64,000 bases of DNA from Patescibacteria group bacterium (GTDB lineage Bacteria; Patescibacteriota; Patescibacteriia; Buchananbacterales; UBA6539). Below are positions 1 to 39,507 of the stretch, in pieces. A program made the translations under genes and the position numbers. The notes under the pieces were generated by a model, which worked only from the letters and a program-made list of their open reading frames with translations, was not told the DNA's origin and did not search any database. Position 1 is the stretch's first letter. The number at the start of each line of letters is the position of its first letter. The stretch is from contig JAQTYZ010000001.1 in assembly GCA_028688055.1 (NCBI GenBank), positions 242,910-306,909 of the forward strand, given 5' to 3'.

Positions 1-998
1 ACCGCCTCACCTCTAATATCGAAACCGCCCAAGCCACGATTGATTTTTTCGCCAGCCTCAATAATTCTTTTAGTGATTGAAGCGACTTGAACGGTCGGAT
101 TTTGTCCATTATTAAAATTATAGTTGTTGGTGCCATTTAAGATTCTTAAAATAGTCTTGGGAATTTCCAGATGGCACAGGTGAAAGGGTTTAGTAATGAC
201 ATAGTATGGCCCTGGCCCGAGCTTAAGATATTCCAAGTAAGGTTTTTGTTCACAATCATGAGTGGCAACAATAAAGATACCAGCTGGACCGGTTGGGCAT
301 AGAACGTAGTCGCTAATTATTTTTTTCATCCCCGCCGCGATTTCCGCTAACCGATTGGCTCCGTCTTCAATATTGGCGCAGTTAATACCCGATAAATTTC
401 GGCAGGCGATGGTGGCCTTTAAGGCATTGGCGACCAGGGCCTGCTCAATCTGCAATTTTGTGCCGTCGGTAAAAGCCGTTACTTGAGTTAATGAGATACC
501 TTGTCTTTTAGACCAGTATGCCATTTCTTCAGGCGTTGGGTTGATGTTCAAAAATCTTTTAATATTGCCAAAGACTAACGGTTTAAAACCCATCGCTTTG
601 ACTTCTTCATTCAAAACCGCGAGTGATCCGGGTTGATCGCCTTCAGCTTCAACAAATTTTCCGAGACGACTTAACACTGTCCCCGAAACAATTTGTAGTT
701 CCGAGTTCATTGTCACTACCGGCAGTCCGGCTCGCAGGACTTTTTCGACTGTGGCAGTGCCATGAATGACGTCCCCGCTGCACTCAACCACTAAGTCGCT
801 ATTATCAATTACCGTTTGGATATCAGCAGTAAATTTAACGCCCCTTAATGATTCATCGCTAATCTCGTCAAACTGGCGGCGGGTTAAGACGTAGCTTACT
901 TCCAACTCGTGATAGTGGTTGAGGGCTAAAATTAAACCGCGCCCGATAAAGCCAGTTCCAATGACGCCAACTTGAAATTTTCGTCCCTGAGAATTCAT
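1..998 (-). CDS. NAD(P)-binding oxidoreductase with C-terminal SAF domain (homoserine-dehydrogenase-like, COG4091-type); 3' end runs off the window
   Basis: Hand translation of the reverse strand from ATG (rc) at 996-998: MNSQGRKFQVGVIGTGFIGRG... (Rossmann GxGxxG), C-terminal SAF-like ...GEKINRGLGGFDIRGEA. No stop before the window edge. Only 1 nt from the stop of the upstream giant GT gene, so likely operonic. Not in the ORF track because it is truncated. Confidence 0.55.
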   Translation of the reverse strand, partial: MNSQGRKFQVGVIGTGFIGRGLILALNHYHELEVSYVLTRRQFDEISDESLRGVKFTADIQTVIDNSDLVVECSGDVIHGTATVEKVLRAGLPVVTMNSELQIVSGTVLSRLGKFVEAEGDQPGSLAVLNEEVKAMGFKPLVFGNIKRFLNINPTPEEMAYWSKRQGISLTQVTAFTDGTKLQIEQALVANALKATIACRNLSGINCANIEDGANRLAEIAAGMKKIISDYVLCPTGPAGIFIVATHDCEQKPYLEYLKLGPGPYYVITKPFHLCHLEIPKTILRILNGTNNYNFNNGQNPTVQVASITKRIIEAGEKINRGLGGFDIRGEA

Positions 999-999
999 A

Positions 1000-3900
1000 T
1001 TATTTATTTATAATCGCCAGAAAATTATTGCTAGTTTTTATCCAATCAAATTTGTTGGCCCAGTCCAAGCATTGAACCATCATTGAATGGCGTAGTTTTT
1101 CGTTGATTATCAGCTCGACCATTTTATCGGCAAATTCTTGGCGGTTGCCATATTCAACTAAGTAACCGGTATGAGGATTACTAACCGAGTCACGTAAGCC
1201 CGGAACGTCAGACGCAATCACCGGCGTGGCGCAGGCGTTGGCTTCAATCGTCGTGATACCCCAGCCTTCCATAAAAGACGGATTAACTAAAACCCAAGCT
1301 TTTTGCAGGAGGCTGATTTTTTGTTGCTCATTAACTTTTCCGGTAAAAGAAACTTTGTCTGACAAATTTAAATTGGTCATCAATTTTTTAAGCTTGTAAT
1401 CTTCCTCACCGCTACCGGCAATGACTAATTTAGCATTCGGAATTTTTTCACTAACAATCTTAAACGCTTCCAGCAAAACATTAATTGATTTATATGCTTT
1501 TAACCGACCGAGATATAAAATTTCCGGGTAAACGCTTTTTTGGCCCGGTTTTAAATCATTAAGATGAACACCTGGATGGACAATCTCAATGCCTGCTTGG
1601 CCAAGACCCAATTCCATTATTTCTTCTTTGCTTGAATTAGAAACGGTGATAAACGGAATTTTTCGGTAAACCAAAGGCATTAAATCTTTTTCCAAAAAAC
1701 TGGCAATTATGGCTAACGGCTTAGCAAGCGATTGACGAAAAACTTCTTGATGAACGTGATGCATTAGGCAATATATTTTTTTTCTTGAATAGAGCGGTGT
1801 AAAAAACGGAATGCCATTTTGACAATCAATAATAACATCATAGTGGCCGCGGAAGCGCAAGCTGTAATAAATAAACGCCCAGAAATAAACAAAATAAAAT
1901 CCACCGCGGCGAATAATTTGTACTCCGTCAACCATTTCATTTCTTAGACACGTTGTATCGTTGCCGCAAAAAATGGTGACATAATGTCCTTGCTTGAGCC
2001 ATTGCTTGGCCATCTCTTGAATATAGGCCTCAGCCCCGCCAGCGAATTTATGTTTAGTATCACGCCAATTAAAAATAAGAATTTTTTTGGTATTGGCATT
2101 GTCAGCAATTGTCGGCAGATTGGCAAATACGCCGAGGAAGTCAATCAGGTTATTTTTAATTGAACCATAGAGGTATTCATAACGATTAAGCCAGGAAATT
2201 GATATTAAGCTCAGCGCGCTAGTTATAAAAATAACGCCGGTTATTTGATAAATATTTTGATGATAGATGATAATACCCAGCGACATCATTACGGAAAAAA
2301 TTAAAGACGCGCCGGCGAAGAAATAATTTTTTTTCGCCAAGTGGTATGAGACATAAACATTGCTAAGGGTAAACATGGCAATCGCCGGCAAATAGATATT
2401 TAAGTATGGCAGCACCACCAATGACTTCGCACCAAAAATAAACGGTATCACCAATCGGCCGAGGGTTAACAAACCAATTGAGCCAAAGCCGACTAAAACG
2501 GCGGTTGCAGCTAAAATAATTCTTAGTTTGTTTTCGGAGTTTTTATTTAAGCCGACGTCGCGACTAACCAGAGTTGTGATGAAAATACTCGGTAGGGCCC
2601 CAAAAAAGAAAACCATTTTTCCAATCAGTGCGAGTAGGGAATACTCGCCAGCAATTTGCGGTGATAAATAATGCTTAACCAAGATGATGTCAAAACTCAA
2701 AAAGACGATGGCGGAAATACCGGCGAACAGTGAAGCGGTATAGAATTTTACCGGGAATTCGATGATGGCGGCTGGTTCCGCTTTAAGGTTTAGTCTATTT
2801 TTGACTAAATAGACTGAGGCTGTCGCCGAAACAATGATTGAAAATGGAATTGAGATAAAGGCAAATTGCCCCAACCCAGCATAGACCAAAACAAACGCCG
2901 CTATCAATTTGCTTACGGACTCGGTCAAAATAATAAGCGCAACGGTTTTAAAATAGAGCGTTCCATTAAGGTAACCTTGGTTAGCAGCAGCAATGACACC
3001 GCCAATTAAAATTGGGGTAAATAACAACAGCGAAAGATAATTTGGCAGCTTAAAAAATATGGTTAAAGTTGGAATAGCTAAGAGCCAAGCCGCCGAGATG
3101 ACAACGGTGGCAATCGCGCCGCGCTTAATAATTTTTTTTAAAAAATTAACACTAGCTTGTTCGCCGACCGCCGTCGACAAGTAAGCGGTTCGGTAATTGA
3201 CTGTTGATGATAAAGCGCCAATAAATATTCCGGCAATAAACCACAGCGTGTTAATGAAAGTAATAAGTCCCAGATTTTCAAAAGTCAAAGCGCGCCCAAG
3301 AAAAGCGTTATATAACAAGTTTAAAACATTTGAAATCATCATCGCCGCCAAAAGTATTCCGCCGCTGGTTAAATTATCCAACTTAATTTTGTAAGGTATC
3401 TTTTCAGCGATGATATTTTGTACTAGCTTAGACGTTGAAGCAAAAAATGACAGCGGTGAACGCTTGCGTAAGTTGGGGCCATTATTATCCCAGCTCCAAT
3501 AATAATCCACCGTTGAGTATGGTAGTCGATCAGTAATCGACTGAAGATCTTGAGGGGTAGTTGATTCTGCCGGCGCTGACGGGATAATGATTTTAAAAAT
3601 TAATAAGCCAAATGATTTTGCCTTAGCTTTGGCAGCTTGGATAAATTCATAGGCCGAATGTTTTTTAATATGCAAACCGTTGTCATCCCAAGACCATTGG
3701 TAGGAACTTAGTCGGTACGAAATTGAACGATACAAATTAGTAACATTATTTTCAATTTTTTGAGTTGTCGCATTACCTTGAGGAATAAACTCGCCAAAAA
3801 ACTGCCAGGTTTTTTGAGCTGTTTGGATTAAGGGTGCCAAAAAAAATTCGCTTGGTTTTATTTTTAGGTGTAAACCGTGATGAGTTTTTTCCCAATAGTG

Positions 3901-6000
3901 AGGCTTAACAATTAATTGGTATAAGGCAAAGTATGAAGCAATACTAGTCATCAGCCAATAAAATGGCACCAAATAAATATATTTCATCAGTGACCAATGA
4001 TTTTTTCTAGCGCAACCAATCATGTAGTAATATAAAAACAAAAAGTTACCGAAGACTAAAGAAGTAGCCGCCATAAAGAAAATTAGCGGTGGAAATAATT
4101 GTTCAATCGTCGGACCAACAATCGAGTATAAAGTAAAATAGGCAATGGTGGCGAGCCATAAAAAAGGATTAATCATGGCAAAGGCAATTTTGCCGCCGAC
4201 CACCAGTTGAAAAATAATTGCATGAACCCCGTTGTAACGAAACAGTTTTAGCGGATGGCGCATATGAACCAAGTAGGTCTGCATATAACCTTTCATCCAA
4301 CGCGATCGCTGACGGAGCCAATTTTTGGCGTGACTATTGGCCTCTTCAAGTGTCGTGGAATCAATAATGGCGGTTTTATAATTTTTTCTAAACAGTCTAA
4401 TGCCTAAATCGCAATCTTCGGTGACATTAAACGGATCCCAACCTTCGAGTTCAACTAAGCTGGCCGTTTTAAAATGATTACTGGTCCCACCGAGGGGAAT
4501 GTAAGTATTTAATGATTGCAAGCCCGTTAAGGTAACATCAAACCATAATGAATATTCGGCGGTAAAAAAGCGCGTCAGTAAATTCTGATGTGGGTTGTGA
4601 TAATTTAATTTTGCCTGTAGACAAGCCACGTCGGGCGCGACTCGCTGGAAGCCAAGATACGCTTTTTTAAGTTGAAGTGGGTCGGGAATATCTTCGGCAT
4701 CATAAATAACTAAATATTCCCCGCGGGCAAAACCTAGGCCATAGTTGCAGGCTTTTGGTTTGGTCTTGGGAAAAGAGTCGGGTACCACTATGGCCCTGAC
4801 GTAGTCGGGCAAATCAAGTTTGGTCGCCATTTCGACGGTGACCTGATCGTCTTCTTCCAATAGCAGCAAAACATCTAAACGATTTTTTGGCCAATCAATT
4901 TTTTTGATAGCTGACAAAAAACTAGGCAACACCTCAGCTTCTTTATACAGCGGACATAAAATTGAATAAACCGGCAAGCTGTTATCATCAAGTAATTTAA
5001 CGTCAGAATTTTTAATTTTAATTTCGGGTGAGTTTTTTAAACTTTTTGTAACAAGATAAAAATTAAATAACACGTCAATAAAATAAACGGCACTCATCAG
5101 GGCGGTAATGATAATGGCGGTGGTCATCGGATTATTGTATAAACCAGCGCTAATCAACAAGATAACGAAAAAAATAAATATTTTTTGCCAGCGGGCAAAA
5201 GTTTGAATGGCGGAAGTTTCTTGCTTCAAAGTGGTGTGAGTAATAAATCTTTTTTTTCTGAAGGCAACCCCGGCGCCAATCATTTTTAATTCAGGAATAA
5301 TTTCAAGAATCTGATTCGGCGTCAACTTGAGTTTAAGCGCGTTAAGGCCGATCTCGTAAGCAACTTTTAAAATTTTAACTTTCGATTGTCCACTTCGGCG
5401 ATTCTCAAACATAATGTCCACTTCGGCGATGCGATAGCCGTAGTGCCTTGATTTTAAAAGAAATTCTAGGTCAAAAGTCCAGGGTGTCGGAGAAACTTTA
5501 ACTTCGTTGAGAATTTTAGTTTTAAATATTTTAAATCCGGATTGAACATCGCAACCCAAGCCGTGTAACCATTTGGCGAATAGTAAATTAAAAACACGGC
5601 TCGCGAGCCGTCGTTTAAAGGATAATTTACTTTCGTTTCGTTTGGCGACCACAATGTCAAAACCCTTTTCAATTTTTTTTAACATTTGTGGCAAGGCTTC
5701 GGGCGGATATTGCAAGTCGCCGTCGATAAAGCCAATCAGATTATATTTAGCCTTGGCAAAACCTTCAAGTAGCGATTGCGCCTTACCCCGTTTACCTTTT
5801 TTTTCATACAGTGAAATCGGAAAAAAATTAGCAAGCTCTCTAACTTTGTCTCTGGTACCATCAGTTGAATGGTCATCAATAAAAATAAGCTCATAGTCTG
5901 CCGTGCCAGTCAGAGCTTGGTCGATGCGATTGATTAACTCAGCAATATTTCCCGCTTCATTTAGAACAGGGATAATGACTGATAGTCTGTTACGATTCAT
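1000..6000 (-). CDS. 1666-aa multidomain glycan-assembly fusion protein: GT2 (DPM1-like) + GT2 processive synthase-like (QxxRW) + Wzx-like polysaccharide flippase membrane domain + GT4
   Basis: Uninterrupted 5-kb ORF in AT-rich DNA. N-terminal SVIIPVLNE...FIDDHSTDGT (GT2, dolichol-P-mannose synthase-like). Second GT2 with DAEDIP and RQRSRWMKG (QxxRW processive synthase motif). W-rich duplicated linker (SYQWSWDDNGLHIKKHS / DYYWSWDNNGPNLRKRS). About 12-TM Wzx/MOP-like region. C-terminal GT4 (EGWGITTIEANACATPVIASDVPG). Confidence 0.85.
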   Translation of the reverse strand: MNRNRLSVIIPVLNEAGNIAELINRIDQALTGTADYELIFIDDHSTDGTRDKVRELANFFPISLYEKKGKRGKAQSLLEGFAKAKYNLIGFIDGDLQYPPEALPQMLKKIEKGFDIVVAKRNESKLSFKRRLASRVFNLLFAKWLHGLGCDVQSGFKIFKTKILNEVKVSPTPWTFDLEFLLKSRHYGYRIAEVDIMFENRRSGQSKVKILKVAYEIGLNALKLKLTPNQILEIIPELKMIGAGVAFRKKRFITHTTLKQETSAIQTFARWQKIFIFFVILLISAGLYNNPMTTAIIITALMSAVYFIDVLFNFYLVTKSLKNSPEIKIKNSDVKLLDDNSLPVYSILCPLYKEAEVLPSFLSAIKKIDWPKNRLDVLLLLEEDDQVTVEMATKLDLPDYVRAIVVPDSFPKTKPKACNYGLGFARGEYLVIYDAEDIPDPLQLKKAYLGFQRVAPDVACLQAKLNYHNPHQNLLTRFFTAEYSLWFDVTLTGLQSLNTYIPLGGTSNHFKTASLVELEGWDPFNVTEDCDLGIRLFRKNYKTAIIDSTTLEEANSHAKNWLRQRSRWMKGYMQTYLVHMRHPLKLFRYNGVHAIIFQLVVGGKIAFAMINPFLWLATIAYFTLYSIVGPTIEQLFPPLIFFMAATSLVFGNFLFLYYYMIGCARKNHWSLMKYIYLVPFYWLMTSIASYFALYQLIVKPHYWEKTHHGLHLKIKPSEFFLAPLIQTAQKTWQFFGEFIPQGNATTQKIENNVTNLYRSISYRLSSYQWSWDDNGLHIKKHSAYEFIQAAKAKAKSFGLLIFKIIIPSAPAESTTPQDLQSITDRLPYSTVDYYWSWDNNGPNLRKRSPLSFFASTSKLVQNIIAEKIPYKIKLDNLTSGGILLAAMMISNVLNLLYNAFLGRALTFENLGLITFINTLWFIAGIFIGALSSTVNYRTAYLSTAVGEQASVNFLKKIIKRGAIATVVISAAWLLAIPTLTIFFKLPNYLSLLLFTPILIGGVIAAANQGYLNGTLYFKTVALIILTESVSKLIAAFVLVYAGLGQFAFISIPFSIIVSATASVYLVKNRLNLKAEPAAIIEFPVKFYTASLFAGISAIVFLSFDIILVKHYLSPQIAGEYSLLALIGKMVFFFGALPSIFITTLVSRDVGLNKNSENKLRIILAATAVLVGFGSIGLLTLGRLVIPFIFGAKSLVVLPYLNIYLPAIAMFTLSNVYVSYHLAKKNYFFAGASLIFSVMMSLGIIIYHQNIYQITGVIFITSALSLISISWLNRYEYLYGSIKNNLIDFLGVFANLPTIADNANTKKILIFNWRDTKHKFAGGAEAYIQEMAKQWLKQGHYVTIFCGNDTTCLRNEMVDGVQIIRRGGFYFVYFWAFIYYSLRFRGHYDVIIDCQNGIPFFTPLYSRKKIYCLMHHVHQEVFRQSLAKPLAIIASFLEKDLMPLVYRKIPFITVSNSSKEEIMELGLGQAGIEIVHPGVHLNDLKPGQKSVYPEILYLGRLKAYKSINVLLEAFKIVSEKIPNAKLVIAGSGEEDYKLKKLMTNLNLSDKVSFTGKVNEQQKISLLQKAWVLVNPSFMEGWGITTIEANACATPVIASDVPGLRDSVSNPHTGYLVEYGNRQEFADKMVELIINEKLRHSMMVQCLDWANKFDWIKTSNNFLAIINK

Positions 6001-6389: not shown

Positions 6390-7781
6390 ATGAGAATCGT
6401 TCGTAGTGCCACCTTGCTTGCCTTGGTTATCGGCCTGGCAGGTTGCCCGCCGGTCCACCCGATATTCATTTGGGGTGCCGGCCTCTTCGCGACCGACGGC
6501 GGTTGCGAAAACAACTTTTCCGTTTTCGTTACGAACAACAATGCGGCCGAGGCGAGTTTCCAGCTTTGGCAGCAAAACAGCCAAGGTCAGTGGCTCCCGA
6601 CTCAGGACCAGCATAAGGTCCAGTTCGGTCCGGTCGAAAACGTGACACTGTATCGTGTCGACGCGACGTACCAGGGCCAGGACGTGTTCTACTGGAATGG
6701 TGCGTACATTTATTCGCCGTATGGCTATCCTTACCATTACAAGTCAAACGACAAGGACGCCAATGGCGAGAAAGTGTTGCCGGGCTATTACCCCTGGAAT
6801 TACGTGCCTTGGGGCTGGGTGCAGTCGCACGGCGTGTACGGCCATACGACCGAGACAGTTGAAGTCTCGCACATGGATATCATCCATAGTGAAGGTTTCG
6901 ACCTCTACTCGGTTTTTCCCAATCTATCGTCCAGCCCGTACCGAGTCAAAATCACTGGCGTCGATACGGACGGCAAGGCTTTTGTGGCCGCGACCACCGA
7001 TGTTTATTCGGTGGTCGACGATTGCACCGCCAATGGTGGCCCCTGTGGAACACCGAGTCTGCGCATCGACCGTACGCCGCTGTTTGGCGATAACAACGGT
7101 GTCGTCAGCGGCACTGTCTGTCTCGAAAACCCAGTCGGTTGGACCGTGGGCGTTTATGCTCACGTTACCAACGTGTGGCCGGATCCGTACAATCTCATCG
7201 GCGTCGTGCCAATCAACGCGAGTGGTAATTGGACGCAGCAAGGCGTCCAGACTGCGGACGACAAGTTCGCGATCGAATTCTTCGCGTCACTGGCGCCAAC
7301 TGGTACCGTTTACCCCTCGACTTCGCAGGGCATTCCCCAAATTGCGGGGCAGGTTGATTCCGATGTGAAACAACGGACACCGTTTGTGGTGTTTGTCGGC
7401 AACCCCTCTGTCTCGGGTGGCGCTGAGTGCCAGACGAATTATTTCCCAGCGCTATTCGGCGCGATTGCGTACGTCCAACAGGCGAACGGTAACGTTCACC
7501 AGCAGCCGATGTACAGTCCGCCGTCCGCGAGCACGTTGGTATCATTGATACCGGATGCGGGTGGGGCTTTCTGCACCTTCCACATCGCCCTTAACCAGGT
7601 CGCCGCCGGGTCAAGCTACGACCCCGGACAAGCGGCCACGGTCAAGGTGCAGGTCATCCCTCAGGGATACAATTACGTCAAAACGGAGACGGGCATAACG
7701 GTTGACAACCTCAACCTCAACCTGACTCCAGAGGGAGTGGCCGGACGAGGAGCCGATGTCGCCGCCACCTTAGCCCCGTAG
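6390..7781 (+). CDS. Secreted lipoprotein of unknown function, encoded in a high-GC island (atypical codon usage)
   Basis: AGGAG RBS 9 nt upstream. Signal peptide with lipobox LALVIGLAG-C. Trp/Tyr/Gly-rich mature part. GC and GC3 far above flanks. The overlapping ORFs in other frames (6216-6737-, 6655-7368+ etc.) are high-GC artefacts. Confidence 0.7.
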   Translation: MRIVRSATLLALVIGLAGCPPVHPIFIWGAGLFATDGGCENNFSVFVTNNNAAEASFQLWQQNSQGQWLPTQDQHKVQFGPVENVTLYRVDATYQGQDVFYWNGAYIYSPYGYPYHYKSNDKDANGEKVLPGYYPWNYVPWGWVQSHGVYGHTTETVEVSHMDIIHSEGFDLYSVFPNLSSSPYRVKITGVDTDGKAFVAATTDVYSVVDDCTANGGPCGTPSLRIDRTPLFGDNNGVVSGTVCLENPVGWTVGVYAHVTNVWPDPYNLIGVVPINASGNWTQQGVQTADDKFAIEFFASLAPTGTVYPSTSQGIPQIAGQVDSDVKQRTPFVVFVGNPSVSGGAECQTNYFPALFGAIAYVQQANGNVHQQPMYSPPSASTLVSLIPDAGGAFCTFHIALNQVAAGSSYDPGQAATVKVQVIPQGYNYVKTETGITVDNLNLNLTPEGVAGRGADVAATLAP

Positions 7782-17074: not shown

Positions 17075-20000
17075 ATGGTTAATAAAAAGTTGGTTAAACC
17101 GGCTTGGAATTTCTTTAGCTGGTTTATGATTGTGATGACGGTGGTTCCGTTTTCAGCAATCAGTATATCCCCAAGGGCGGCGCAAGCTAGCACTGGGGTT
17201 GTTTTATTCCAAGATGATTTTGAGTCTGGCTTAGCGAGTTGGACTTCAGACTCAGGCACCGTTGGTACCGACGACTCATCAAGTTATCGACGAAGTTGTC
17301 CTGGTGATTTTAGTAGTTGCGGCGTTGATGCCCAAAATGACTATTTATACTTTCAAAACGATGCTGAAATAATCAAAACGATTAATACAACCGGGTATAC
17401 TGACGCAACTTTTAGCTACTGGCGCCGGGGTGTTGGTTTATCCTCAAATGACCGATTTGAAACGGCCTGGAGGATTGGAACTTCAGGTAGCTGGACACCA
17501 TTAGAATCAGACAAAGATTCTACTTGGACTAAAAAAACGTTTGTGCTTTCGGGCTCAGCTGACCAGACGGCAATTCAGATAAGACTGCGTTTAACAAATG
17601 CCGAATCTTCAGATAAGGCTCTTTTTGATGATATTCAGACAGTGGCTGACGACTTAACCCAGCCGGGAATTCAAATTACAACAATAAATAACGGCCAACC
17701 GGATGATTTCTCTTGTCCAAATAACCCGCCGTCAAATCCGATAACACTCAGTGGTTCTGGCGCCGGTAGTACGCCGCCAGGTCTTATTGAACAGTATAAG
17801 GTTCAGGTTGACTGGGGCGATGGTAATGTTGAAAATGATTTAGGAGTTTTTACTCCAAGCAGTGGTCACGGTAATTTTACTTTTACTTTTACCGCCTCAG
17901 CTCATAGTTATACCAGTAGTGGCACCTATACCGTTAAAGCTCGTCTTTATCATCAAGCCGCACCAGGAAATGATGGTGATGCCGACGCTGTTACCACATT
18001 TGAAACGTGTGCCACGGTTATTTCCTGCGGCGACGGTATAAAAAATGGCAGTGAAGAATGTGATGGTACTGATGGCATTGGGACTCACCAAAGCTGTTCT
18101 CAAGACTGTACTTTAGTTAGCGAGCCATATTGCGGCGATAGTATTGTTAATGGCACTGAACAGTGCGATGCTGGTCCAAATGGATCTGATACCTGCTCAA
18201 CCGATTGTACTACTATTGATCAACAGCCAGTTGCCGTTTGCGGCAATGGCGCTATTGAAGACGGAGAACAGTGTGATGACAGCAATACTACTAATGGCGA
18301 CGGCTGTAGCAATGTCTGCCAGCTGGAAGTTTTACAGTGTGAAGAAATTACCAGCCAAGAAAATGGTTGGTTTGGTCAATATTACAATTATTTTGCGACT
18401 GACTTTGGCATGAATGTTCAGAGCATTTACTGGCCTGATAGTAACCACGGTGATCCATTGAGCGTTAACCAAGCTTTTGATGCCGATTGGTATCAATCTA
18501 ATCATTTCCGTTTCTCAAGGGTTGATAGTTCTATTGATTTTGGTGATAACTTTTTCCCGTTTGACATTGCCCCGGAATCGGCCACTCCCGATGATATCGA
18601 AAATGGTCACGATTTCCACTTTGGGGTTCACTGGAGCGGTATTGTTCATGTTGATAACCCAGGAGAATATATCTACACTGTTCGATCAGATGATGATTCA
18701 TGGATCTATGTTGACGGTGTCCTGATTAATAACGATTTACAGGGTATTCACGCCCCAACTGCCACCAGCGGATCAATGCTTTTGACTGGCGACAATGTTG
18801 TTGATATTTATTTTGCGGAACGACATCGATCAGAATCGGCATTTTCCTTCAATTTTGACAGCGAAGGTGTCAGTATCAAACCATATTCTAAAGATTGTCC
18901 GGAGTGCGGTAATTATGTAACCGACGGGCAGGAGGAATGTGACGCTGGTCCAAACGGTTCAGCTACTTGCTCCGTTGAATGTACAATTTCGATTTGTGGT
19001 AACGGTCGTGTTGAATATGGTGAACAGTGTGATGATAATAATACTGTTAATGGCGACGGCTGTAGCAATGTCTGCCAGCTGGAAGTTTTACAGTGTGAGG
19101 ACATACCAGGCGATAATAATGGTTGGTTCGGTCAATACTATAATTACTTTGCAACTTTATTTGGTATGAATGTTCAGGACATTTACTGGCCTGATAGTAA
19201 TCACGGTGATCCATTGAGCGTTAACCAAGCTTTTGATGCCGATTGGTACACCGCACCATATTTCAGATTTTCGAGAATTGACAGCTCAATTAATTTTGGT
19301 GATAACTTTTTCCCATTTGACATTGCTCCGGAATCGGCCGATTCTGACGACATCGAAAATGGCCACGATTTCCACTTTGGGGTTCACTGGCAGGCTACTG
19401 CTCATGTCAATACGCCTGGAGAATATAGCTATACCATGCGTTCAGACGATGATTCATGGGTATACCTAAATGGTGCTTTAGTTAATGACGACTTAAATGG
19501 TATCCACGCCCCGTCCGCTACCAGTGGAACAATGTATCTCGATGGTTCTGATAACATTGATATTTTCTTTGCGGAACGACATCGTTCACAATCAGCATTT
19601 TCATTTAACTTCGATGGCGAGGATGTGACCTTAACCCCGGTTAACAATCAGTGTGTCGAGAATCCGGTTTGTGGTAATGGTGCTGTTGAACAAGGTGAAC
19701 AATGTGATGACGGAAATACCACTTCCGGCGACGGTTGCAGTGATTTATGTCAACTTGAAAGTATAACGACAAATATTTGTGGCTTTAAATGGAATGATTC
19801 AGATGGCAATCAGTCGTTTGATGAAGGTGAGTCAAAATTAGCCAATTGGACCATTGATTTACTTAAGTTTGGTATTTGTCAGGCAGACGATGAATGGGCT
19901 GATGATATTATCAGCTATACGCCTGGAACCAGAAAGAACGGAACACCAGTGACAGTTGAGCGATCAGATGCTAGCAATGCCTTGGGCGTAGCAGAAAATA

Positions 20001-22057
20001 ATTACACTCTTAATTTTGTGTCGTTAGGATTTGGCGGTGAACTGGTCCTTCATTTTAACAATTTAATTGTTAATGGTGCCGGCGACGACCTGCAATTAGT
20101 TGAATCATCATATAAGCTAGTTGGCTCAGTCTATAGTAGCCCTGACTGTAGTAGCTACCCGGAGCAGGCTCAGGTTTTTGCTTCACAGGACGGCTCAAAT
20201 TGGGTTGAATTGGGTACTAAATGTTTAGATAGTACCTTTGATCTCGCTTCATTACCGTGGGCTAGTTATGTTAAAATTGTTGATGCCTCTAATAAAAATT
20301 CAACATATTTCCCAGCCGATGCTGATGGTTTTGATGTTGACGGCATCAAGGCGCTAAATTGTTCATCAGGTTATGAGACTATTTCAACCCAGGTAACTGA
20401 TGAAGATGGTAACTATTGTTTCAGCGATATTAACCCTGGCGATTATCGCGTCCAGGAAGAAATGCAAAACGGCTGGGTTAATTCGACTCCATTTTATCAA
20501 GATGTAACCGCCGGCCGAGGCGATAGTCTGGAAGTTAACTTTGGCAATAAGACAAGTCAGCCAGTCCAACCAGGTAGTATTTGTGGGTATAAATTCGAAG
20601 ATAATAATCAGAATGGCTTATTTGATGGCAGCGAATTCGGCATTCCAGGCTGGCGAATATTTGCCACCTCAACTGACTTATTTACTGACACAATAACTAA
20701 CGATGATGGTTATTACTGCTTTAATGGTTTAAGTAATGGCATCTTTGATGTTTTTGAGGAAATTGTGTCAGGTTGGGCAACAACAACCGCTGCCACTAGC
20801 ACCATCAACCTTATTGATGTTGGTGTTAATAATATCAATTTTGGAAATTTCCGGTGTGTGGATAATGATGATGATGGATATTATATCGGTGGTGGTAATT
20901 GCGGACCGATTGACTGCAATGATGATAATTCAAACATTAACCCAGGTGCCGCTGAGGTATGTGACGAACTTGATAATAATTGCAACGCCCAGATTGATGA
21001 AGGTGGCGTCTGCGAAGAGCCGACAACCGAATGTACTTCGGGCGCTGTCCAATCATGTGGTTCAAGTGAAGTTGGCGAATGTCAATTAGGAACAAAAACT
21101 TGTGACGAAACCGGACACTGGGGATCATGCGTTGGTTCTGTTGAGCCAACCTCGGAAATCTGCGACGAAAAAGATAATAATTGTAACGGCCAAACTGATG
21201 AAGACAATATCTGCCAAGGTCCAAGCGTAACTACCACCGGAACCGGTGGTGGCGGCGGTGGTGGAATTTCCACCCTGTATATCCATAATGAAGCGCTTCA
21301 GGATGGAACCACAAATTCAATAACCATTACCTGGTTTACCAACATACCGGCCGATAGTCGAATTGTTTATGACACTGTTTCTCACCCCATACTTGGTTTT
21401 GCACCAAACTATGATTATCAGTGGTCGACAAATACGTATGATGATTCATCACTTGTTACCTTCCATACGGTTATTATCACCGGTCTCAATTCAGGCACAA
21501 CCTATTACTTCCGGCCTTTGTCAGCTGATTCTTCAAATCACGCCAACGGTATTGAATTAAGTTATTTCACCTCTAACGGCAATGACGAAAATCAGCCAGA
21601 AGGCAATCCTCCAACAAACACTAACAGTAATACTAATGCCAACACCAATACTAACCAGGGGATAGTTCTTGGAGTATCAACCGAAAATAACAGCGCCGGA
21701 AATGGCACGGTTGCTGGTGAAGAATATGTGGAGCCAACTTCATCATCAACGCCAACTACGACGCCTGAAGTTATTGAAACAGGCAAAACTGAAGAAACTC
21801 CCCAGAATTGCTCACTATACATATTAATTCTGCTACTACTTAACATTATCACGGCGGCCTTTGCTGGCTATCGTTCAAGGGATAACAAGAATAATGTTAT
21901 TAAAAATCTCTGGTGGTTAGTTGGAATACTAGCTGTTTTGCCAGTCATTATTTGGTACCCAGCCTGTTGGCTAACTTGGTGGCTTGTTATTACTCTTATT
22001 GCCTCAATTGTGGCTGTTGCAATTGGAAACGATGGTCAACAAAATCAAAACAGTTAA
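17075..22057 (+). CDS. Giant (1660 aa) cell-surface adhesin-like protein: signal peptide, Myxococcus-type Cys-rich repeats, 2 tandem PA14 domains, Cna-B-like domains, MopE-like metal-binding motifs, Fn3-like domain, NT-rich linker, C-terminal TM anchor
   Basis: Signal peptide ...SPRAAQA. Repeats CGNGxxExGEQCDDxNTxxGDGCSxxCQLE. PA14-like modules ending IYFAERHRSESAFSFNFD (two copies). Cna-B-like GDYRVQEEMQNGW. CxDxDxDG / CDExDNNCNGQxDE motifs. C-terminal hydrophobic helices after a PTNTNSNTNANTNTNQ linker. Confidence 0.85.
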   Translation: MVNKKLVKPAWNFFSWFMIVMTVVPFSAISISPRAAQASTGVVLFQDDFESGLASWTSDSGTVGTDDSSSYRRSCPGDFSSCGVDAQNDYLYFQNDAEIIKTINTTGYTDATFSYWRRGVGLSSNDRFETAWRIGTSGSWTPLESDKDSTWTKKTFVLSGSADQTAIQIRLRLTNAESSDKALFDDIQTVADDLTQPGIQITTINNGQPDDFSCPNNPPSNPITLSGSGAGSTPPGLIEQYKVQVDWGDGNVENDLGVFTPSSGHGNFTFTFTASAHSYTSSGTYTVKARLYHQAAPGNDGDADAVTTFETCATVISCGDGIKNGSEECDGTDGIGTHQSCSQDCTLVSEPYCGDSIVNGTEQCDAGPNGSDTCSTDCTTIDQQPVAVCGNGAIEDGEQCDDSNTTNGDGCSNVCQLEVLQCEEITSQENGWFGQYYNYFATDFGMNVQSIYWPDSNHGDPLSVNQAFDADWYQSNHFRFSRVDSSIDFGDNFFPFDIAPESATPDDIENGHDFHFGVHWSGIVHVDNPGEYIYTVRSDDDSWIYVDGVLINNDLQGIHAPTATSGSMLLTGDNVVDIYFAERHRSESAFSFNFDSEGVSIKPYSKDCPECGNYVTDGQEECDAGPNGSATCSVECTISICGNGRVEYGEQCDDNNTVNGDGCSNVCQLEVLQCEDIPGDNNGWFGQYYNYFATLFGMNVQDIYWPDSNHGDPLSVNQAFDADWYTAPYFRFSRIDSSINFGDNFFPFDIAPESADSDDIENGHDFHFGVHWQATAHVNTPGEYSYTMRSDDDSWVYLNGALVNDDLNGIHAPSATSGTMYLDGSDNIDIFFAERHRSQSAFSFNFDGEDVTLTPVNNQCVENPVCGNGAVEQGEQCDDGNTTSGDGCSDLCQLESITTNICGFKWNDSDGNQSFDEGESKLANWTIDLLKFGICQADDEWADDIISYTPGTRKNGTPVTVERSDASNALGVAENNYTLNFVSLGFGGELVLHFNNLIVNGAGDDLQLVESSYKLVGSVYSSPDCSSYPEQAQVFASQDGSNWVELGTKCLDSTFDLASLPWASYVKIVDASNKNSTYFPADADGFDVDGIKALNCSSGYETISTQVTDEDGNYCFSDINPGDYRVQEEMQNGWVNSTPFYQDVTAGRGDSLEVNFGNKTSQPVQPGSICGYKFEDNNQNGLFDGSEFGIPGWRIFATSTDLFTDTITNDDGYYCFNGLSNGIFDVFEEIVSGWATTTAATSTINLIDVGVNNINFGNFRCVDNDDDGYYIGGGNCGPIDCNDDNSNINPGAAEVCDELDNNCNAQIDEGGVCEEPTTECTSGAVQSCGSSEVGECQLGTKTCDETGHWGSCVGSVEPTSEICDEKDNNCNGQTDEDNICQGPSVTTTGTGGGGGGGISTLYIHNEALQDGTTNSITITWFTNIPADSRIVYDTVSHPILGFAPNYDYQWSTNTYDDSSLVTFHTVIITGLNSGTTYYFRPLSADSSNHANGIELSYFTSNGNDENQPEGNPPTNTNSNTNANTNTNQGIVLGVSTENNSAGNGTVAGEEYVEPTSSSTPTTTPEVIETGKTEETPQNCSLYILILLLLNIITAAFAGYRSRDNKNNVIKNLWWLVGILAVLPVIIWYPACWLTWWLVITLIASIVAVAIGNDGQQNQNS
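18238..19680 (+). repeat. Tandem direct duplication (2 x ~757 bp, ~85-90% nt identity) of the Cys-rich-repeat + PA14 module inside the adhesin gene
   Basis: Runs of exact identity such as AATGGCGACGGCTGTAGCAATGTCTGCCAGCTGGAAGTTTTACAGTGTGA at 18293 and 19049, and TTTACTGGCCTGATAGTAA-CACGGTGATCCATTGAGCGTTAACCAAGCTTTTGATGCCGATTGGTA. Confidence 0.85.
21610..21660 (+). repeat. Low-complexity Asn/Thr codon repeat (PTNTNSNTNANTNTNQ linker) inside the adhesin gene
   Basis: (AAC/ACT/AAT) microsatellite-like run CCAACAAACACTAACAGTAATACTAATGCCAACACCAATACTAACCAG. Confidence 0.6.
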
Positions 22058-26095: not shown

Positions 26096-27703
26096 ATGTT
26101 AGGTAAATTTTTTAACCGGCAGTCTCAGACAATTACGTCGGCCGCTATTGTGTTGGGAGCGGCTTCTTTGTTGTCACGGTTATTAGGCGTGCTTCGAGAC
26201 AGAATATTGGCCGGTCAGTTTGGCGCTGGTCGAGAATTAGATATGTATTATGCGGCTTTTAGAATTCCTGATTTAATATTTAATCTCTTGGTCGTCGGTG
26301 CTTTGTCAGCCGGATTGATTCCGGTTTTAACCAAATCACTGGGCAACTCCAAAAAAACCTGGGAAATTGTCAATATTTCGTTGAATGTCTTGTGTTTTGT
26401 GCTAGTTCTATTTGGCTTACTAATATTTATTTTAGCCGATTGGGTGATGAAAATTATTACCCCTGGTTTTTCTGCGCCCGACATTCACATCGCCGCTAAT
26501 TTAACCAGAATTATGATGTTAAGTCCGATGTTTTTAGGAATGTCTGGAATATTTGGCAGTGTCCTGCAGTCTTATAAACGATTTTTTTTGTATTCGATTG
26601 CGCCAATTATGTACAATATCGGAATTATGATTGGCGCTTTATTCTTGGCGGAATATTTTGGTATTTACGGTTTAGCGCTGGGAGTTGTGCTCGGAACGGT
26701 TTTGCATATGTCAATTCAACTGCCCGCTGTTGTAGCTCTAGGTTTCAAGTATCAGCCTATTTTTGACCTGACAAACACGGAGTTTAGAAAAATTGTTAAG
26801 CTAATGGTTCCTCGAACAATGGGTCTAATAATTTCCCAAGTTAATTTTTTAGTCGTTACTATCCTAGGTTCAACTCTCGCGGCGGGTAGTATCGCGATTT
26901 TCAGTTTCGCCAACAATATTCAAAGTTTTCCGCTTGGCATATTTGCTATTTCCTTTGCCGTGGCCGTGTTTCCAACGTTATCACAGCTAGCTGAACAAAA
27001 AAAGGAATTTATTAATACGCTATCTTTGGCTGTTAGACAAATTTTATTTTTAATAATTCCATCATCAGCTTTACTTATTGTCTTAAGGGCACAAGTTGTT
27101 CGGGTGGCGCTGGGAACCGGCCGCTTTGATTGGCAGGACACTGTTTTAACTTTAGAAACCGTAGCACTATTTGCCTTTAGTTTATTTGCTCAGGCCCTAG
27201 TGGCTGTTTTTGTTCGGGCCTTTTATGCTCAAAACGACAGCCGAACTCCCTTTTTTATTGGTCTTATTTCCGAAATATTTAACTTAGGGTTGGCGGTAAT
27301 GTTAATTAAAACTTCGGGCGTGGCCGGGTTGGCACTGGCTTTTTCGCTGGCCAACATTTTGAATTTGGTTTTGCTTATTTTGGCTCTGCATTATCGTATG
27401 GGTAAATTAGATGGCCATCAGGTAACTGTTTCGGTAACCAAGATTGTCATTGCAACCAGTTTATTGGTCTTAGTGGCTCAGGCGGTTAAATATCCGATGG
27501 AACAATATTTTGGCACAGTGACACTGTTTGGCGTTTTTCTTCAGGCGACCGTCGCGACCGTCGCCGGGGGCGGTACCTATCTGTTAATTTGTTTATTACT
27601 CAAAAGTGAAGAAGCGTTATTATTTATTAACTCATTTAAACGTAAATTTTTAAAGAATTCGATATTGCCCGAAGAAATAATTGAAAATGATAAATTGGTA
27701 TGA
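26096..27703 (+). CDS. murJ: Lipid II flippase MurJ (MviN)
   Basis: N-terminal LGVLRDRILAGQFGAGRELDMYYAAFRIPD signature, 14-TM MOP family. Confidence 0.9.
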   Translation: MLGKFFNRQSQTITSAAIVLGAASLLSRLLGVLRDRILAGQFGAGRELDMYYAAFRIPDLIFNLLVVGALSAGLIPVLTKSLGNSKKTWEIVNISLNVLCFVLVLFGLLIFILADWVMKIITPGFSAPDIHIAANLTRIMMLSPMFLGMSGIFGSVLQSYKRFFLYSIAPIMYNIGIMIGALFLAEYFGIYGLALGVVLGTVLHMSIQLPAVVALGFKYQPIFDLTNTEFRKIVKLMVPRTMGLIISQVNFLVVTILGSTLAAGSIAIFSFANNIQSFPLGIFAISFAVAVFPTLSQLAEQKKEFINTLSLAVRQILFLIIPSSALLIVLRAQVVRVALGTGRFDWQDTVLTLETVALFAFSLFAQALVAVFVRAFYAQNDSRTPFFIGLISEIFNLGLAVMLIKTSGVAGLALAFSLANILNLVLLILALHYRMGKLDGHQVTVSVTKIVIATSLLVLVAQAVKYPMEQYFGTVTLFGVFLQATVATVAGGGTYLLICLLLKSEEALLFINSFKRKFLKNSILPEEIIENDKLV

Positions 27704-31836: not shown

Positions 31837-31838
31837 TA

Positions 31839-32206
31839 CCTAAGTAAACCGATAAGCCGAATTCTGTATCCCGTTGCCGGGATGATGATCATCTATCTAG
31901 GTCCAATATTGCTAATGGACTCAAGCTGCCTACCTAATTTGGCATTGCACCTGGCAGGAGTTTACCACACCGACTGTTACCAGTCAGTCATGCGTGGGCT
32001 CTTACCCCACGATTTCAACCTTACCGCTCGCAGAAGCGAGGTTGGCGGTGTATTTTCTGTTGCACTTGCCCTGAGCTTGGCAAAAAAACAGAAGTCTTAA
32101 GCACTTCTATCATTTTGTTACTCTCGGCTCCCGTTAGGAGTTGCCGTTTTGTGGTGTTCGGACTTTCCTCCCGAAATTAATCGGGCGATCATCTAGTTTA
32201 CTTAGG
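31839..32206 (-). ncRNA. rnpB: RNase P RNA, bacterial type A
   Basis: Reverse strand contains the universally conserved blocks GGAGGAAAGTCCGAAC (P4 5' strand), GTGCAACAGAAAA, GGTAAGGTTGAAATCGTGGGGTAAGAGCCCAC, GGTAACAGTCGGTG...GTAAACTCC, ACAGAATTCGGCTTATCGGTTTAC (P4 3' strand). P1 pairing is CCTAAGTAAAC / GTTTACTTAGG at the ends. Length about 368 nt. Confidence 0.9.
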
Positions 32207-32293: not shown

Positions 32294-33697
32294 ATGAAAA
32301 AATCTGAACTCGCATTTGTCGCCGTTAAACCGCCCCTCGATTATTTGGCAATCGTCGCTGCCGCGCTGGTCTCTTACCTGATTCGATATTTATCAGCCAT
32401 CCAAAGTATCAGGCCGGTCGTTTTTGATTTGCCTTTTAAGACTTTTTTTAGTTTGACTTTGATTATGGCCATAATTTGGGTAGTTATTTTTGCTATTTCA
32501 GGATTGTACAATATCTCTGGCCCGCAAAAATTTTTTAAGGAACTAGCCAAAATTTTTGTCGCCTGCTCAGCAGGCCTCGCGGCGGTTTTGGCTGTAATGG
32601 TTTTTTCAAGATATTTATTCGATTCACGTTTTATTATTTTATCAGCTTGGTTTTTGTCAATTATATTTATCAGCCTCATCCGCTTAATTATCAATGTCAT
32701 TCAAAAAATATCATACCGAGCCGGCATTGGCGTTCATCGGGTAGCTATTATTGGTGATGGCGATACCGTCTCAGCGCTGACGGATGAATTTTCCGCGCGT
32801 CCGACTCTTGGCTACAAAATAATATCAACCTTTCCTTTTTTTGATCCAACGGTTGAAACCCAACTTCGACAAATGGTTAAAGACGATAAGCTCGATGAGA
32901 TTATTCAAATTAATCCAAACTTTGATCGAGACAAAACTATTAGTCTGATAAATTTTGTCAACGAGTTTCATCTAGACTATCGCTACACTGCCGATCTACT
33001 CGGTACTCAATTAACGAATATCACAGTCAACACGATTGTCGGTACACCGATTGTTGAAGTTAAAAAAACTCGACTTGATGGCTGGGGTCGTATTGCTAAA
33101 CGAATATTTGATATATTTGGTTCGATGATTTTAATTATTTTAACCTCGCCAGTAATGTTATTAGCGGTCGTTTTAATTAAACTTGATTCAAAGGGGCCGG
33201 TCCTGTTTAAATATAAAAGAATTGGTCAGTATGGAAAACCGTTTACCTATTTTAAGTTAAGATCAATGTTTTCTAACGCCCATCAGCTAAGATATGACTC
33301 CGATTTTCAAATGCAAAATAAGAATTTGCGTGAGGGTACCCCAATGATTAAATTTAAACGTGATCCTAGAATAACCAGGGTTGGCCGAGTTATCCGGCGC
33401 TTTAGCATTGATGAACTGCCAGAATTATTTATTTCTTTAATTGGCCAAATGAGTTTAGTTGGGCCAAGACCACACGAAATTGAGGAGGTTGAAAAATATC
33501 AGCGGCATCATAAAAAAGTTCTGACCATCAAACCCGGCATTACTGGTCTGTCACAAGTTTCCGGACGATCAGATTTAGATTTTGAAGATGAAGTTAAATT
33601 AGATACTTTTTATATTGAAAATTGGTCTTTAGCTAAAGATATTCAAATTATTTTAAAAACGCCATTGGCGATTATTAAAAGGAGAAAAACCGAATGA
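32294..33697 (+). CDS. Polyprenyl-phosphate sugar transferase (WbaP/bacterial sugar transferase family), initiating glycosyltransferase
   Basis: N-terminal TM bundle; C-terminal sugar-transferase domain with FKLRSM, PMIKFKRDPRITRVG, DELPQL-like DELPELF and VGPRP motifs. Confidence 0.85.
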   Translation: MKKSELAFVAVKPPLDYLAIVAAALVSYLIRYLSAIQSIRPVVFDLPFKTFFSLTLIMAIIWVVIFAISGLYNISGPQKFFKELAKIFVACSAGLAAVLAVMVFSRYLFDSRFIILSAWFLSIIFISLIRLIINVIQKISYRAGIGVHRVAIIGDGDTVSALTDEFSARPTLGYKIISTFPFFDPTVETQLRQMVKDDKLDEIIQINPNFDRDKTISLINFVNEFHLDYRYTADLLGTQLTNITVNTIVGTPIVEVKKTRLDGWGRIAKRIFDIFGSMILIILTSPVMLLAVVLIKLDSKGPVLFKYKRIGQYGKPFTYFKLRSMFSNAHQLRYDSDFQMQNKNLREGTPMIKFKRDPRITRVGRVIRRFSIDELPELFISLIGQMSLVGPRPHEIEEVEKYQRHHKKVLTIKPGITGLSQVSGRSDLDFEDEVKLDTFYIENWSLAKDIQIILKTPLAIIKRRKTE

Positions 33698-34809
33698 AAG
33701 TTGGATTAGTACATGACCATTTAATTCAAGAAGGTGGCGCCGAACGAGTCTTAGAAATTTTTCAGGAGATGTGGCCACAAGCGCCGACCTATACCTTGCT
33801 TTACGATAAAAAAAAGCTTGGGGCAATTTTTGATAAGCGCGATATCAAAACTTCATGGCTTCAGAGTCTGCCGGGCGCGCTTAATCATTATCAATGGTTC
33901 TTACCGCTGATGCCAAGTGCTACTGAAAGCTATGATTTAACGCCATATGATGTTGTGTTGTCAAGTTCATCGGCGATGGCTAAGGGTATTATTACCAGAT
34001 CAAATACCCTTCATTTTTGCTATTGCCATACGCCTACCCGCTATTTGTGGTCAGACACTCATCGTTATGTTGACGAATTAAAATATAATCGAATAATTAA
34101 GCGCTTGATTCCGCCGGTTTTAACGAGATTGAGGACGTGGGATCAGATCGCTGCTCAACGCGTTGATTATTATATTGCAAATTCTAAGGATGTGGCTGAT
34201 CGAATTAAAAAATATTATCGCCGCGACAGTATTGTCATTCATCCACCGGTGACCACCAGTCAGTTTAAAATTAGCCCCGCGCCGGAAAATTATTTTCTCA
34301 CTGGCGGTCGATTAGTTACTTATAAAAAATTTGATTTAACAATTAAAGCCTTCAATCGCTTGGGTATTAAATTAAAAATTTTTGGGCAGGGCCCCGAGGA
34401 AACCAAGCTGCGGGCATTGGCAAAATCTAATATTGAATTCCTAGGTAAAGTTAGCCAGGAACAATTAGCTGATTTGTATAGCAAGGCGATCGCTTTCATC
34501 CACCCGCAAATTGAAGATTTTGGTATCACGGCCGTTGAGTCAATGGCATCCGGCCGACCCGTTATTGCCTTTTGGGGTGGCGGGGCGAGAGAAACGGTTG
34601 TCCAAAATAAGACGGGTGTCTTTTTTGATGAGCAAAGCTGGGAATCGCTGGCTGACACGGTGGTCAGATTTAAACCGGAAAACTTTAAGTCAAGCGACAT
34701 CAAGTTATATGCCGAGCAATTTGGCGTTGACCGATTTAAACGAGAAATAAAAAACACCATTGATGCGGAGTGGCAAAAGTTACTAAGCTCACAAATTAAA
34801 TGTCTGTAG
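33694..34809 (+). CDS. Glycosyltransferase family 4 (GT-B)
   Basis: EDFGITAVESMASGRPVIA EX7E-type motif. Confidence 0.8.
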   Translation: MKVGLVHDHLIQEGGAERVLEIFQEMWPQAPTYTLLYDKKKLGAIFDKRDIKTSWLQSLPGALNHYQWFLPLMPSATESYDLTPYDVVLSSSSAMAKGIITRSNTLHFCYCHTPTRYLWSDTHRYVDELKYNRIIKRLIPPVLTRLRTWDQIAAQRVDYYIANSKDVADRIKKYYRRDSIVIHPPVTTSQFKISPAPENYFLTGGRLVTYKKFDLTIKAFNRLGIKLKIFGQGPEETKLRALAKSNIEFLGKVSQEQLADLYSKAIAFIHPQIEDFGITAVESMASGRPVIAFWGGGARETVVQNKTGVFFDEQSWESLADTVVRFKPENFKSSDIKLYAEQFGVDRFKREIKNTIDAEWQKLLSSQIKCL

Positions 34810-34810
34810 T

Positions 34811-35932: not shown

Positions 35933-35934
35933 TT

Positions 35935-37050: not shown

Positions 37051-37085
37051 TTTGTGTTATAATAAAATCAATTTGAATTATAAAA

Positions 37086-39506: not shown

Positions 39507-39507
39507 T

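Follow-up and report, generated by a model that had tools for sequence, protein, structure and literature searches.

Does a long open reading frame (ORF) that seems to join two family 2 glycosyltransferases (GT2), a Wzx-like flippase and a family 4 glycosyltransferase (GT4) encode one genuine protein, and if so, in which process might its four parts act together? This question is raised by 64,000 nt of DNA from a Patescibacteria group bacterium (the window), in which the ORF lies on the minus strand close to one edge. A preliminary description of the window, made from the sequence alone, had read this ORF as a whole glycan-assembly pathway fused into one polypeptide. In the following, amino acid (aa) numbers refer to the 1666 aa product of the ORF, which is termed the giant protein.

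The ORF and its conservation

The ORF and the parts that can be distinguished in its product are (all on the minus strand):

1000..6000, minus strand: complete ORF of 1666 codons with ATG start, four-module glycan-synthesis fusion
5221..6000, minus strand: module 1 (M1), aa 1-260, predicted polyprenyl-phosphate-type GT2 (Pfam, PDB sequence matches)
3856..5220, minus strand: module 2 (M2), aa 261-715, predicted membrane-integrated processive GT2 synthase (Pfam, motifs, AlphaFold2/Foldseek)
3400..3855, minus strand: variable linker, aa 716-867 (alignment gaps, low pLDDT)
3643..3723, minus strand: copy 1 of a linker repeat, aa 760-786, containing SYQWSWDDNG at aa 766-775 (self-alignment)
3445..3525, minus strand: copy 2 of the linker repeat, aa 826-852, containing DYYWSWDNNG at aa 832-841 (self-alignment)
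2104..3399, minus strand: module 3 (M3), aa 868-1299, predicted 12-helix block of the MOP superfamily with a C-terminal amphipathic helix (homology, AlphaFold2/Foldseek)
1003..2103, minus strand: module 4 (M4), aa 1300-1666, GT4 with GT-B fold (Pfam, motif)

According to the ORF list and the translation there is no second long ORF in the same stretch. As judged from the frequency of stop codons, an open frame of 1666 codons at about 39% G+C cannot be due to chance. The giant protein is 100% identical to a protein from a metagenome-assembled genome at NCBI, which is encoded on a 309-kb contig and annotated as 'glycosyltransferase [Patescibacteria group bacterium]'.

A homology search with the giant protein resulted in 1415 matches at E ≤ 1e-10, and all conservation figures given here refer to the best 120 of them. 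The modules are gap-free in all of these 120 proteins, 119 of which have a length of 1530–1730 aa, while one is a partial sequence of 1389 aa. The proteins were drawn from NCBI, JGI, ENA and Logan assemblies, and those sources that name an organism mostly refer to Patescibacteria, Parcubacteria, Moranbacteria or Niyogibacteria. One homologue is found in a closed 1.1-Mb genome (CP064974.1), and an orthologue from another sample shows 82% identity and likewise has 1666 aa. Positions with at least 97% identity across the 120 homologues were considered as conserved. Of 309 such positions the giant protein retains 308, the sole exception being a conservative exchange of R to K. The conserved positions are distributed very unevenly: 152 are located in M2, 92 in M4, 18 in M3 and none in the linker.

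A long ORF may also arise when an assembly error or a frameshift joins separate genes. Separate genes in the same order do exist in one relative (locus L087, see below), and raw reads of the window were not inspected. Such an artefact would have to account for the same architecture in the 120 listed protein clusters, which stem from assemblies and sources independent of each other and include the closed genome, for module boundaries that align without gaps, for the nearly complete set of conserved positions, and for the 82% identical orthologue of equal length from a different sample. We consider the artefact as effectively refuted. Since independent assemblies share the architecture, and since the modules are gap-free and keep 308 of the 309 conserved positions, the fusion is taken as real: it is a genuine conserved single polypeptide of many bacteria of the candidate phyla radiation (CPR).

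The ORF list, the translation and the conserved full-length homologues thus bear out the uninterrupted 1666 aa reading frame that had been claimed at the outset, and all four modules named in the preliminary description (GT2, QxxRW-type GT2, Wzx-like flippase, GT4) found support, including the flippase-like block. Pfam annotation, which had been suggested as a check, placed the first GT2 at aa 7-166, the second at aa 345-620 and the GT4 at aa 1321-1640. The fusion part of the earlier claim therefore stands, while the notion of a whole pathway does not, because the loci of relatives contain further glycan genes. An initiating phosphoglycosyltransferase, a polymerase/ligase and an extracytoplasmic transferase are all absent from the giant ORF itself.

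Modules, linker and topology

In M1, Pfam detected Glycos_transf_2 (PF00535) with 134 bits, and at least 97% of the homologues share its DxD motif (D93-G-D95). The best PDB sequence matches of this module are all polyprenyl-phosphate glycosyltransferases (Pyrococcus DPMS 5mlz, 8e-28; ArnC 9bhc, 8e-20; GtrB 5ekp, 3e-13). The match to ArnC spans aa 5-288 and hence extends into the first membrane helix; a hydrophobicity scan and the AlphaFold2 model place two transmembrane (TM) helices (aa ~270-322) directly after M1. Matches to NCBIfam models were obtained for ArnC, PgfS, AglJ and dolichyl-phosphate hexose transferases, all below the equivalog cut-offs: the best scores were 73-83 bits versus cut-offs of 325-529 bits, so that M1 does not qualify as an orthologue of the named enzymes ArnC, PgfS or AglJ. 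The matches support the view that M1 belongs to the GT2 polyprenyl-phosphate sugar transferases (DPMS/ArnC/GtrB-like), with the corresponding predicted activity. Characterised relatives of M1 make undecaprenyl- or dolichyl-phosphate monosaccharides.

M2 is by far the most constrained module. It matches Glyco_tranf_2_3 and Glyco_trans_2_3 in Pfam, and is built of the two N-terminal TM helices at aa ~270-322, a GT-A domain, a QRSRW interface helix and C-terminal membrane helices (aa ~592-698). The motifs DAED (434), TED (527) and QRSRW (564-568) are invariant in the family, and the module ends in an invariant tail, KPHYWEKTHHGLHLK (aa 699-713; family form KPHYWEKTxHGLHLK). The score for the PgaC/IcaA model TIGR03937 was 96.5 bits over aa 298-699 versus a cut-off of 422.3 bits, hence orthology to these synthases is not indicated. 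An AlphaFold2 model of aa 231-1310 (1080 residues) had a mean pLDDT of 79 and a pTM of 0.52, with low inter-domain confidence. The top Foldseek matches for M2 were CvHAS (7sp7, 2.2e-10), BcsA (2.4e-10) and XlHAS1 (3.4e-10), over about 520 columns. Sequence motifs and predicted fold support an assignment of M2 as a synthase of the hyaluronan synthase (HAS)/BcsA/PgaC type, which is predicted to be processive.

For M4, the Pfam matches were Glycos_transf_1 (PF00534, 148.9 bits) and Glyco_transf_4 (PF13439, 52.5 bits). The E-x7-E motif (E1578...E1586) is conserved, and all of the 92 conserved positions of this module are present in the giant protein. By these family matches M4 is a standard GT4 glycosyltransferase.

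The assignment of M3 is based on its homologues and on its predicted fold. A stand-alone protein of 430 aa (P0121) shares 40% identity with M3 (E 1e-102) and passes the gathering cut-offs for Polysacc_synt (32.3 > 28.2 bits) and Polysacc_synt_3 (43.3 > 23 bits). Among 18 diverse homologous M3 blocks, Polysacc_synt was matched by 4 (best 1.4e-8), Polysacc_synt_3 by 2 and MatE by 1. The AlphaFold2 model of M3 (pLDDT 86, pTM 0.82) comprises 12 long helices and a C-terminal amphipathic helix, and Foldseek related it to MurJ (6nc6, E 8.5e-8), to WzxE (9g9n, TM-score 0.74/0.77, rmsd 4.0 Å) and also to MATE transporters. A sequence-profile search of the PDB with an 18-sequence MOP alignment returned spurious matches to orexin receptors (G-protein-coupled receptors) only. 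Because of the homology to P0121, the matches of the homologous blocks and the 12-helix fold of the WzxE/MurJ kind, M3 is classified as a Wzx-like protein of the MOP superfamily and as a predicted flippase.

A role of M3 as the lipid II flippase MurJ was also considered and rejected, since the genome has its own true MurJ gene (26096-27703, 316.6 bits). M3 gave no match to PF03023, and its model has 12 TM helices plus the amphipathic helix, not 14 TM helices.

The two copies of the linker repeat align with a score of 70 (z = 11 versus shuffles). The linker as a whole is gapped in most of the 120 homologues, varies in length from 42 to 221 aa and has no conserved column; its pLDDT is mostly below 50 in the AlphaFold2 model, and it is predicted to be largely disordered. 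It has neither a hydrophobic segment that passes the TM threshold nor a Pfam match at E ≤ 10. Among the best 120 homologues, the Trp-rich pattern occurs only in the giant protein and in its 82% identical relative. Between both copies and the synthase tail HYWEKTxHGLHLK there is a weak similarity (z = 3.4; short BLAST matches), which is most simply read as a lineage-specific tandem duplication of this tail. A duplicated Trp-rich motif between synthase and flippase, as described before, is indeed present in both copies, and is a feature of this lineage, not of the family. A conserved functional linker element was rejected, considering that only 2 of the 120 homologues have the motif and that the length of the linker varies.

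The catalytic domains of synthases of the M2 class are cytoplasmic, a GT4 has to be cytoplasmic in order to reach nucleotide sugars, and MOP proteins consist of 12 helices and have their N- and C-terminus in the cytoplasm (WzxE and MATE structures). In line with this, the catalytic domains of M1, M2 and M4 and the linker would all be located in the cytoplasm, and the giant protein would have about 18 membrane helices in total. The linker is placed on this side because it lacks a TM segment and because a Lys/His-rich tail follows the last helix of M2. In a relative without the MOP block (locus L004) the synthase tail is joined to the GT4 by about 30 residues, so tail and GT4 should be on the same side of the membrane.

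Relatives and genomic neighbourhood

The preliminary description had suggested a comparison with orthologues, to see whether the modules are separate ORFs elsewhere. They are, in a graded series from split genes and stand-alone MOP proteins to partial fusions. A profile of the MOP block was compared to 1.84 billion representative proteins, which gave 706 clusters at E ≤ 1e-30, and the best 150 of these were sorted by size. MOP-alone size (380-530 aa, each with Met as first residue) was found for 57 and the size of MOP plus one domain (701-960 aa) for 55, while 11 had 961-1450 aa, 9 were of four-module size (>1450 aa), 5 had 531-700 aa and 13 were fragments. Pfam scans of ten MOP representatives agreed with these size classes and revealed, among other architectures, MOP alone, MOP+GT4, MOP+GT2, MOP+GT4+GT2, MOP+GT4+FemAB-like acetyltransferase and synthase+MOP+GT4. 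Two loci represent steps of this series that directly concern the giant protein:

L087, 2-4198: split fusion of three adjacent genes in fusion order, [GT2+synthase], MOP (430 aa) and GT4 (378 aa); the first product is 52% identical to aa 174-712 of the giant protein
L004, 5992-9393: three-module variant GT2+synthase+GT4 of 1133 aa without MOP block, 55% and 52% identity

The pairs M1-M2 and M3-M4 appear to be stable units. The 1.0-Mb contig of L004 is labelled 'uncultured Gammaproteobacteria'; its gene is 52-55% identical to a CPR protein, and the label may be wrong.

The gene downstream of the giant ORF is cut by the edge of the window:

1..998, minus strand: DRL-type NAD-binding oxidoreductase, candidate nucleotide-sugar reductase

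It had been described as overlapping, which is not the case: the giant ORF ends with TAA at 1002..1000, followed by a one-base spacer and the ATG of the oxidoreductase at 998..996, and the two genes are adjacent. The product had further been termed a SAF-domain oxidoreductase and a possible sugar modifier. Its part within the window contains NAD_binding_3 and DRL_cat (2e-34), which confirms the oxidoreductase; a SAF domain would fall beyond the window edge, and was seen only as a weak match in the counterpart gene of a Niyogibacteria locus (L002). In L002, genes for RmlA, RmlB and RmlC, the DRL_cat+SAF gene, an APH-like kinase gene and two GT2 genes come after the giant gene, in this order. 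The position of the counterpart after the rml genes is compatible with a role as 4-keto-sugar reductase, and makes a sugar-modifying role of the oxidoreductase plausible.

Other homologous loci encode GT2+GT4 fusions, deacetylases (PIG-L or Polysacc_deac_1), a FemAB-like acetyltransferase, a PAP2-like protein and methyltransferases. Four giant-gene clusters end with a gene for a membrane protein that has about 525 aa and 9-11 TM helices:

L085, 16906-18483: ~525 aa membrane protein
L001, 17714-19342: ~525 aa membrane protein
L084, 17156-18638: ~525 aa membrane protein
L002, 20361-20848: ~525 aa membrane protein

Identity between these loci is 31-57%. The 525 aa family is found throughout the CPR, with more than 1300 homologues, which are all annotated as 'hypothetical' and some of which are fused to GT2 or GT4. 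Its invariant motifs include GPLELSPERGR and WGDPWGGWAFGSRYLIP. About 20 of the top matches of this family are on contigs of exactly the same size as those of top matches of the giant protein, which indicates shared contigs. With regard to a three-component system of GT2, flippase and GT-C transferase, the relatives thus carry a candidate partner of 9-11 TM helices, which has no Pfam or PDB sequence match. With regard to a complete Wzx/Wzy pathway, neither a phosphoglycosyltransferase nor a recognised Wzy is encoded in or next to the giant ORF; a Bac_transf gene is located 26 kb away. It belongs to a separate glycan cluster:

32294-41418, plus strand: Bac_transf initiating phosphoglycosyltransferase, three GT4, a DUF4012 protein (806 aa) and a DUF11 protein (636 aa)

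This cluster has no flippase of its own within the window, and could make use of the MOP module of the giant protein. The giant gene has housekeeping genes as neighbours (FtsW/RodA, L25, DnaX, MurJ, LepA, RecJ, RNase P RNA, tRNAs), and the window is typical of the small genomes of Patescibacteria. Some further features were observed in the window:

6390-7781, plus strand: ORF of 463 aa with a lipoprotein-type signal (…LAGC), no Pfam match, about 55% G+C versus about 40% in the flanks
17075-22057, plus strand: second giant ORF of 1660 aa with DUF4215, PA14, SdrD_B, MopE-like and prealbumin-like domains, probably a surface adhesin
31837-32204, minus strand: bacterial class A RNase P RNA (224.9 bits)
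56199-56864, plus strand: homologue of Lit (lipoprotein intramolecular transacylase) in a CPR genome

A syntenic gene of 466 aa next to the 82% identical orthologue (locus L086) indicates that the ORF at 6390-7781 is a real gene of unusual composition.

Proposed function and known systems

Considering the predicted activities of its modules, we propose that the giant protein is an enzyme for an envelope glycopolymer of CPR bacteria. M2 would polymerise a β-linked backbone from a nucleotide sugar and extrude it via its own helices. M1 would load a sugar onto undecaprenyl phosphate, M4 would glycosylate a lipid-linked acceptor on the cytoplasmic face, and the lipid-linked product(s) that M1 and/or M4 provide would reach the outer face through flipping by M3. 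Their attachment to the polymer or to the wall may then be the task of another polytopic membrane protein, a candidate for which is the conserved 525 aa neighbour in relatives. The resulting glycopolymer would be part of the CPR cell envelope, and the fusion may serve to fix the stoichiometry and to co-localise steps that relatives encode as adjacent genes. We see about an even chance that M1 to M4 are coupled in this way. That polymerisation, translocation and decoration are coupled in one protein, as the preliminary description had put forward, is a reasonable, putative hypothesis.

Synthase-dependent extrusion and Wzx-type flipping are normally treated as alternative routes. We tentatively consider a CPR-specific pathway which merges both in a single polypeptide and is completed by the 525 aa family as a new transferase or polymerase: the giant protein would load sugars onto undecaprenyl phosphate and flip them, and on the outside these sugars would then modify the backbone made by M2. 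We hold this wider view to be less likely than not.

Several observations weigh against the proposed coupling and the part assigned to the 525 aa protein. When scanned alone, M3 had no Pfam match, MOP families included, even at E ≤ 10, and with its 18 conserved positions it is the least conserved module. After the catalytic domain of M2, the AlphaFold2 model contains three long helices and a short one, which leaves the number of spans ambiguous. The commonest fusion in the relatives is MOP+GT4 and not MOP with M1, and the existence of the MOP-less variant in L004 means that the pairing of M1 with M3 is not obligatory. The 525 aa family has no Pfam domain (one marginal match to DUF6080) and gave no PDB match with profiles of 3 or 45 sequences. 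It could be a GT-C transferase or equally a polymerase of the Wzy type, and no homologue is encoded in the 64-kb window, whose edge cuts the locus downstream of the giant gene. Moreover, all NCBIfam matches are far below the equivalog cut-offs.

Some of these points would fit well to a Wzx/Wzy system as the core of the locus. M4 and other glycosyltransferases would build an undecaprenyl-diphosphate-linked repeat unit, M3 would flip it, and the 525 aa protein would be a Wzy-like polymerase/ligase, while M1-M2 would form an independent dyad that is attached for co-localisation. MOP+GT4 as commonest fusion, the membership of M3 in the Polysacc_synt/Wzx family, the polytopic nature of the 525 aa protein without family matches (as usual for Wzy proteins), and the Bac_transf and three GT4 genes without a flippase of their own in the window are all in agreement with this. 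However, neither in the window nor in L001, L002, L084 and L085 is a phosphoglycosyltransferase gene fused to the giant gene or located beside it. Furthermore, the fusion and the split locus L087 both keep the order M1-M2-M3-M4, which speaks for a single pathway, and M2 is the most constrained module. We regard this alternative as unlikely.

A lipoglycan route similar to the assembly of mycobacterial phosphatidylinositol mannosides and lipomannan appears quite improbable. In that assembly PimA and PimB are GT4 enzymes, and Ppm1 supplies the polyprenyl-phosphate sugar. By analogy, M4 would glycosylate a membrane lipid inside, M3 would flip it, M1 would supply a polyprenyl-phosphate sugar for extension at the outer face, and M2 would make a processive glycolipid or a lipid-anchored chain. 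A GT4, a GT2 for polyprenyl-phosphate sugars, a flippase and a polytopic outer transferase do follow the logic of PimA, Ppm1 and GT-C enzymes, and a stand-alone synthase homologue in Bradyrhizobium (locus L016) weakly matches Glyco_transf_21, a glycolipid-synthase family. Nevertheless, in structure M2 best matches polymer synthases that have a translocation channel, the sequence does not point to any lipid acceptor, and the deacetylases and rml genes in homologous loci are more typical of wall polysaccharides. The envelope-glycopolymer enzyme with coupled modules as outlined above is the reading that we prefer.

CPR bacteria (Patescibacteria) make up a large, mostly uncultured share of bacterial diversity, and the chemistry of their envelope is almost unknown. 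A widespread and highly constrained fusion that databases merely label as 'glycosyltransferase' indicates, in the sense of a Rosetta stone, that four activities cooperate, and offers a concrete, testable access to a surface polymer of the CPR. A further aspect is the role of Wzx-family flippases outside the classical Wzx/Wzy pathways. If the product mediated attachment to host cells, which is speculation, it would be relevant to the way in which CPR bacteria live as episymbionts.

None of the modules represents a new family, and fusions of several glycosyltransferases are already known. In the literature that could be searched no description of the four-module fusion was found, which does not mean that there is none; the joining of a HAS/BcsA-like synthase with a Wzx-like flippase, a lipid-phosphate sugar transferase and a GT4 within a single chain appears to be undescribed. 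Class I hyaluronan synthases, BcsA and PgaC/IcaA resemble M2 in the D, DxD, TED and QxxRW motifs and in a GT-A domain flanked by TM helices; with regard to the predicted fold of M2, CvHAS, XlHAS1 and BcsA were matched over about 520 columns. Unlike these enzymes, to none of which it is orthologous, M2 has no PilZ or other module for cyclic di-GMP (c-di-GMP), and is fused to a polyprenyl-phosphate sugar transferase at its N-terminus and to flippase and GT4 at its C-terminus.

Stand-alone GT2 synthases of alphaproteobacteria are 41-48% identical to aa ~258-710 of the giant protein, which corresponds to the entire synthase module with its membrane helices. A scan of genome contigs with peptides of the giant protein was dominated by one conserved synthase peptide, and mostly returned such alphaproteobacterial synthases instead of CPR orthologues. 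In the Bradyrhizobium synthase of L016 (5389-7401) an N-terminal MshEN domain, which we take to be a c-di-GMP-binding module, is in the place of M1, and the gene is accompanied by two response regulators and a GH113 glycoside hydrolase, without flippase and without GT4. This arrangement suggests a regulated exopolysaccharide synthase.

M3 shares the 12-helix MOP fold with WzxE, other Wzx proteins and MurJ, and its close stand-alone relatives pass the Polysacc_synt cut-offs. It differs from Wzx and MurJ in lacking a Pfam match of its own and helices 13-14 of MurJ, and in its position between a synthase and a GT4.

For the combination of M1 and M3 there is a precedent in GacI/GacK/GacL, where a GtrB-type GT2 acts with a Wzx-family flippase and an outer-face transferase, the role of GacK being proposed only (bioRxiv 10.1101/180810). 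In this system and in GtrB/GtrA/GtrC, a GT2 that makes an undecaprenyl-phosphate sugar is combined with a flippase, the same classes as M1 and M3, and the flippase of the Gac system is of the Wzx family like M3. In contrast to both, M1 and M3 belong to a single polypeptide that also contains a synthase and a GT4, and many relatives fuse the MOP protein to a GT4 only. Several glycosyltransferase modules in one chain are also found in polymerases of the WbdA/WbbB type and in the GT4+GT2 fusions beside the giant gene in relatives. Such enzymes with several glycosyltransferase modules are soluble or peripheral. Unlike these fusions, the giant protein integrates not only glycosyltransferases, but also a transporter and a channel-forming synthase, as predicted from their families and folds.

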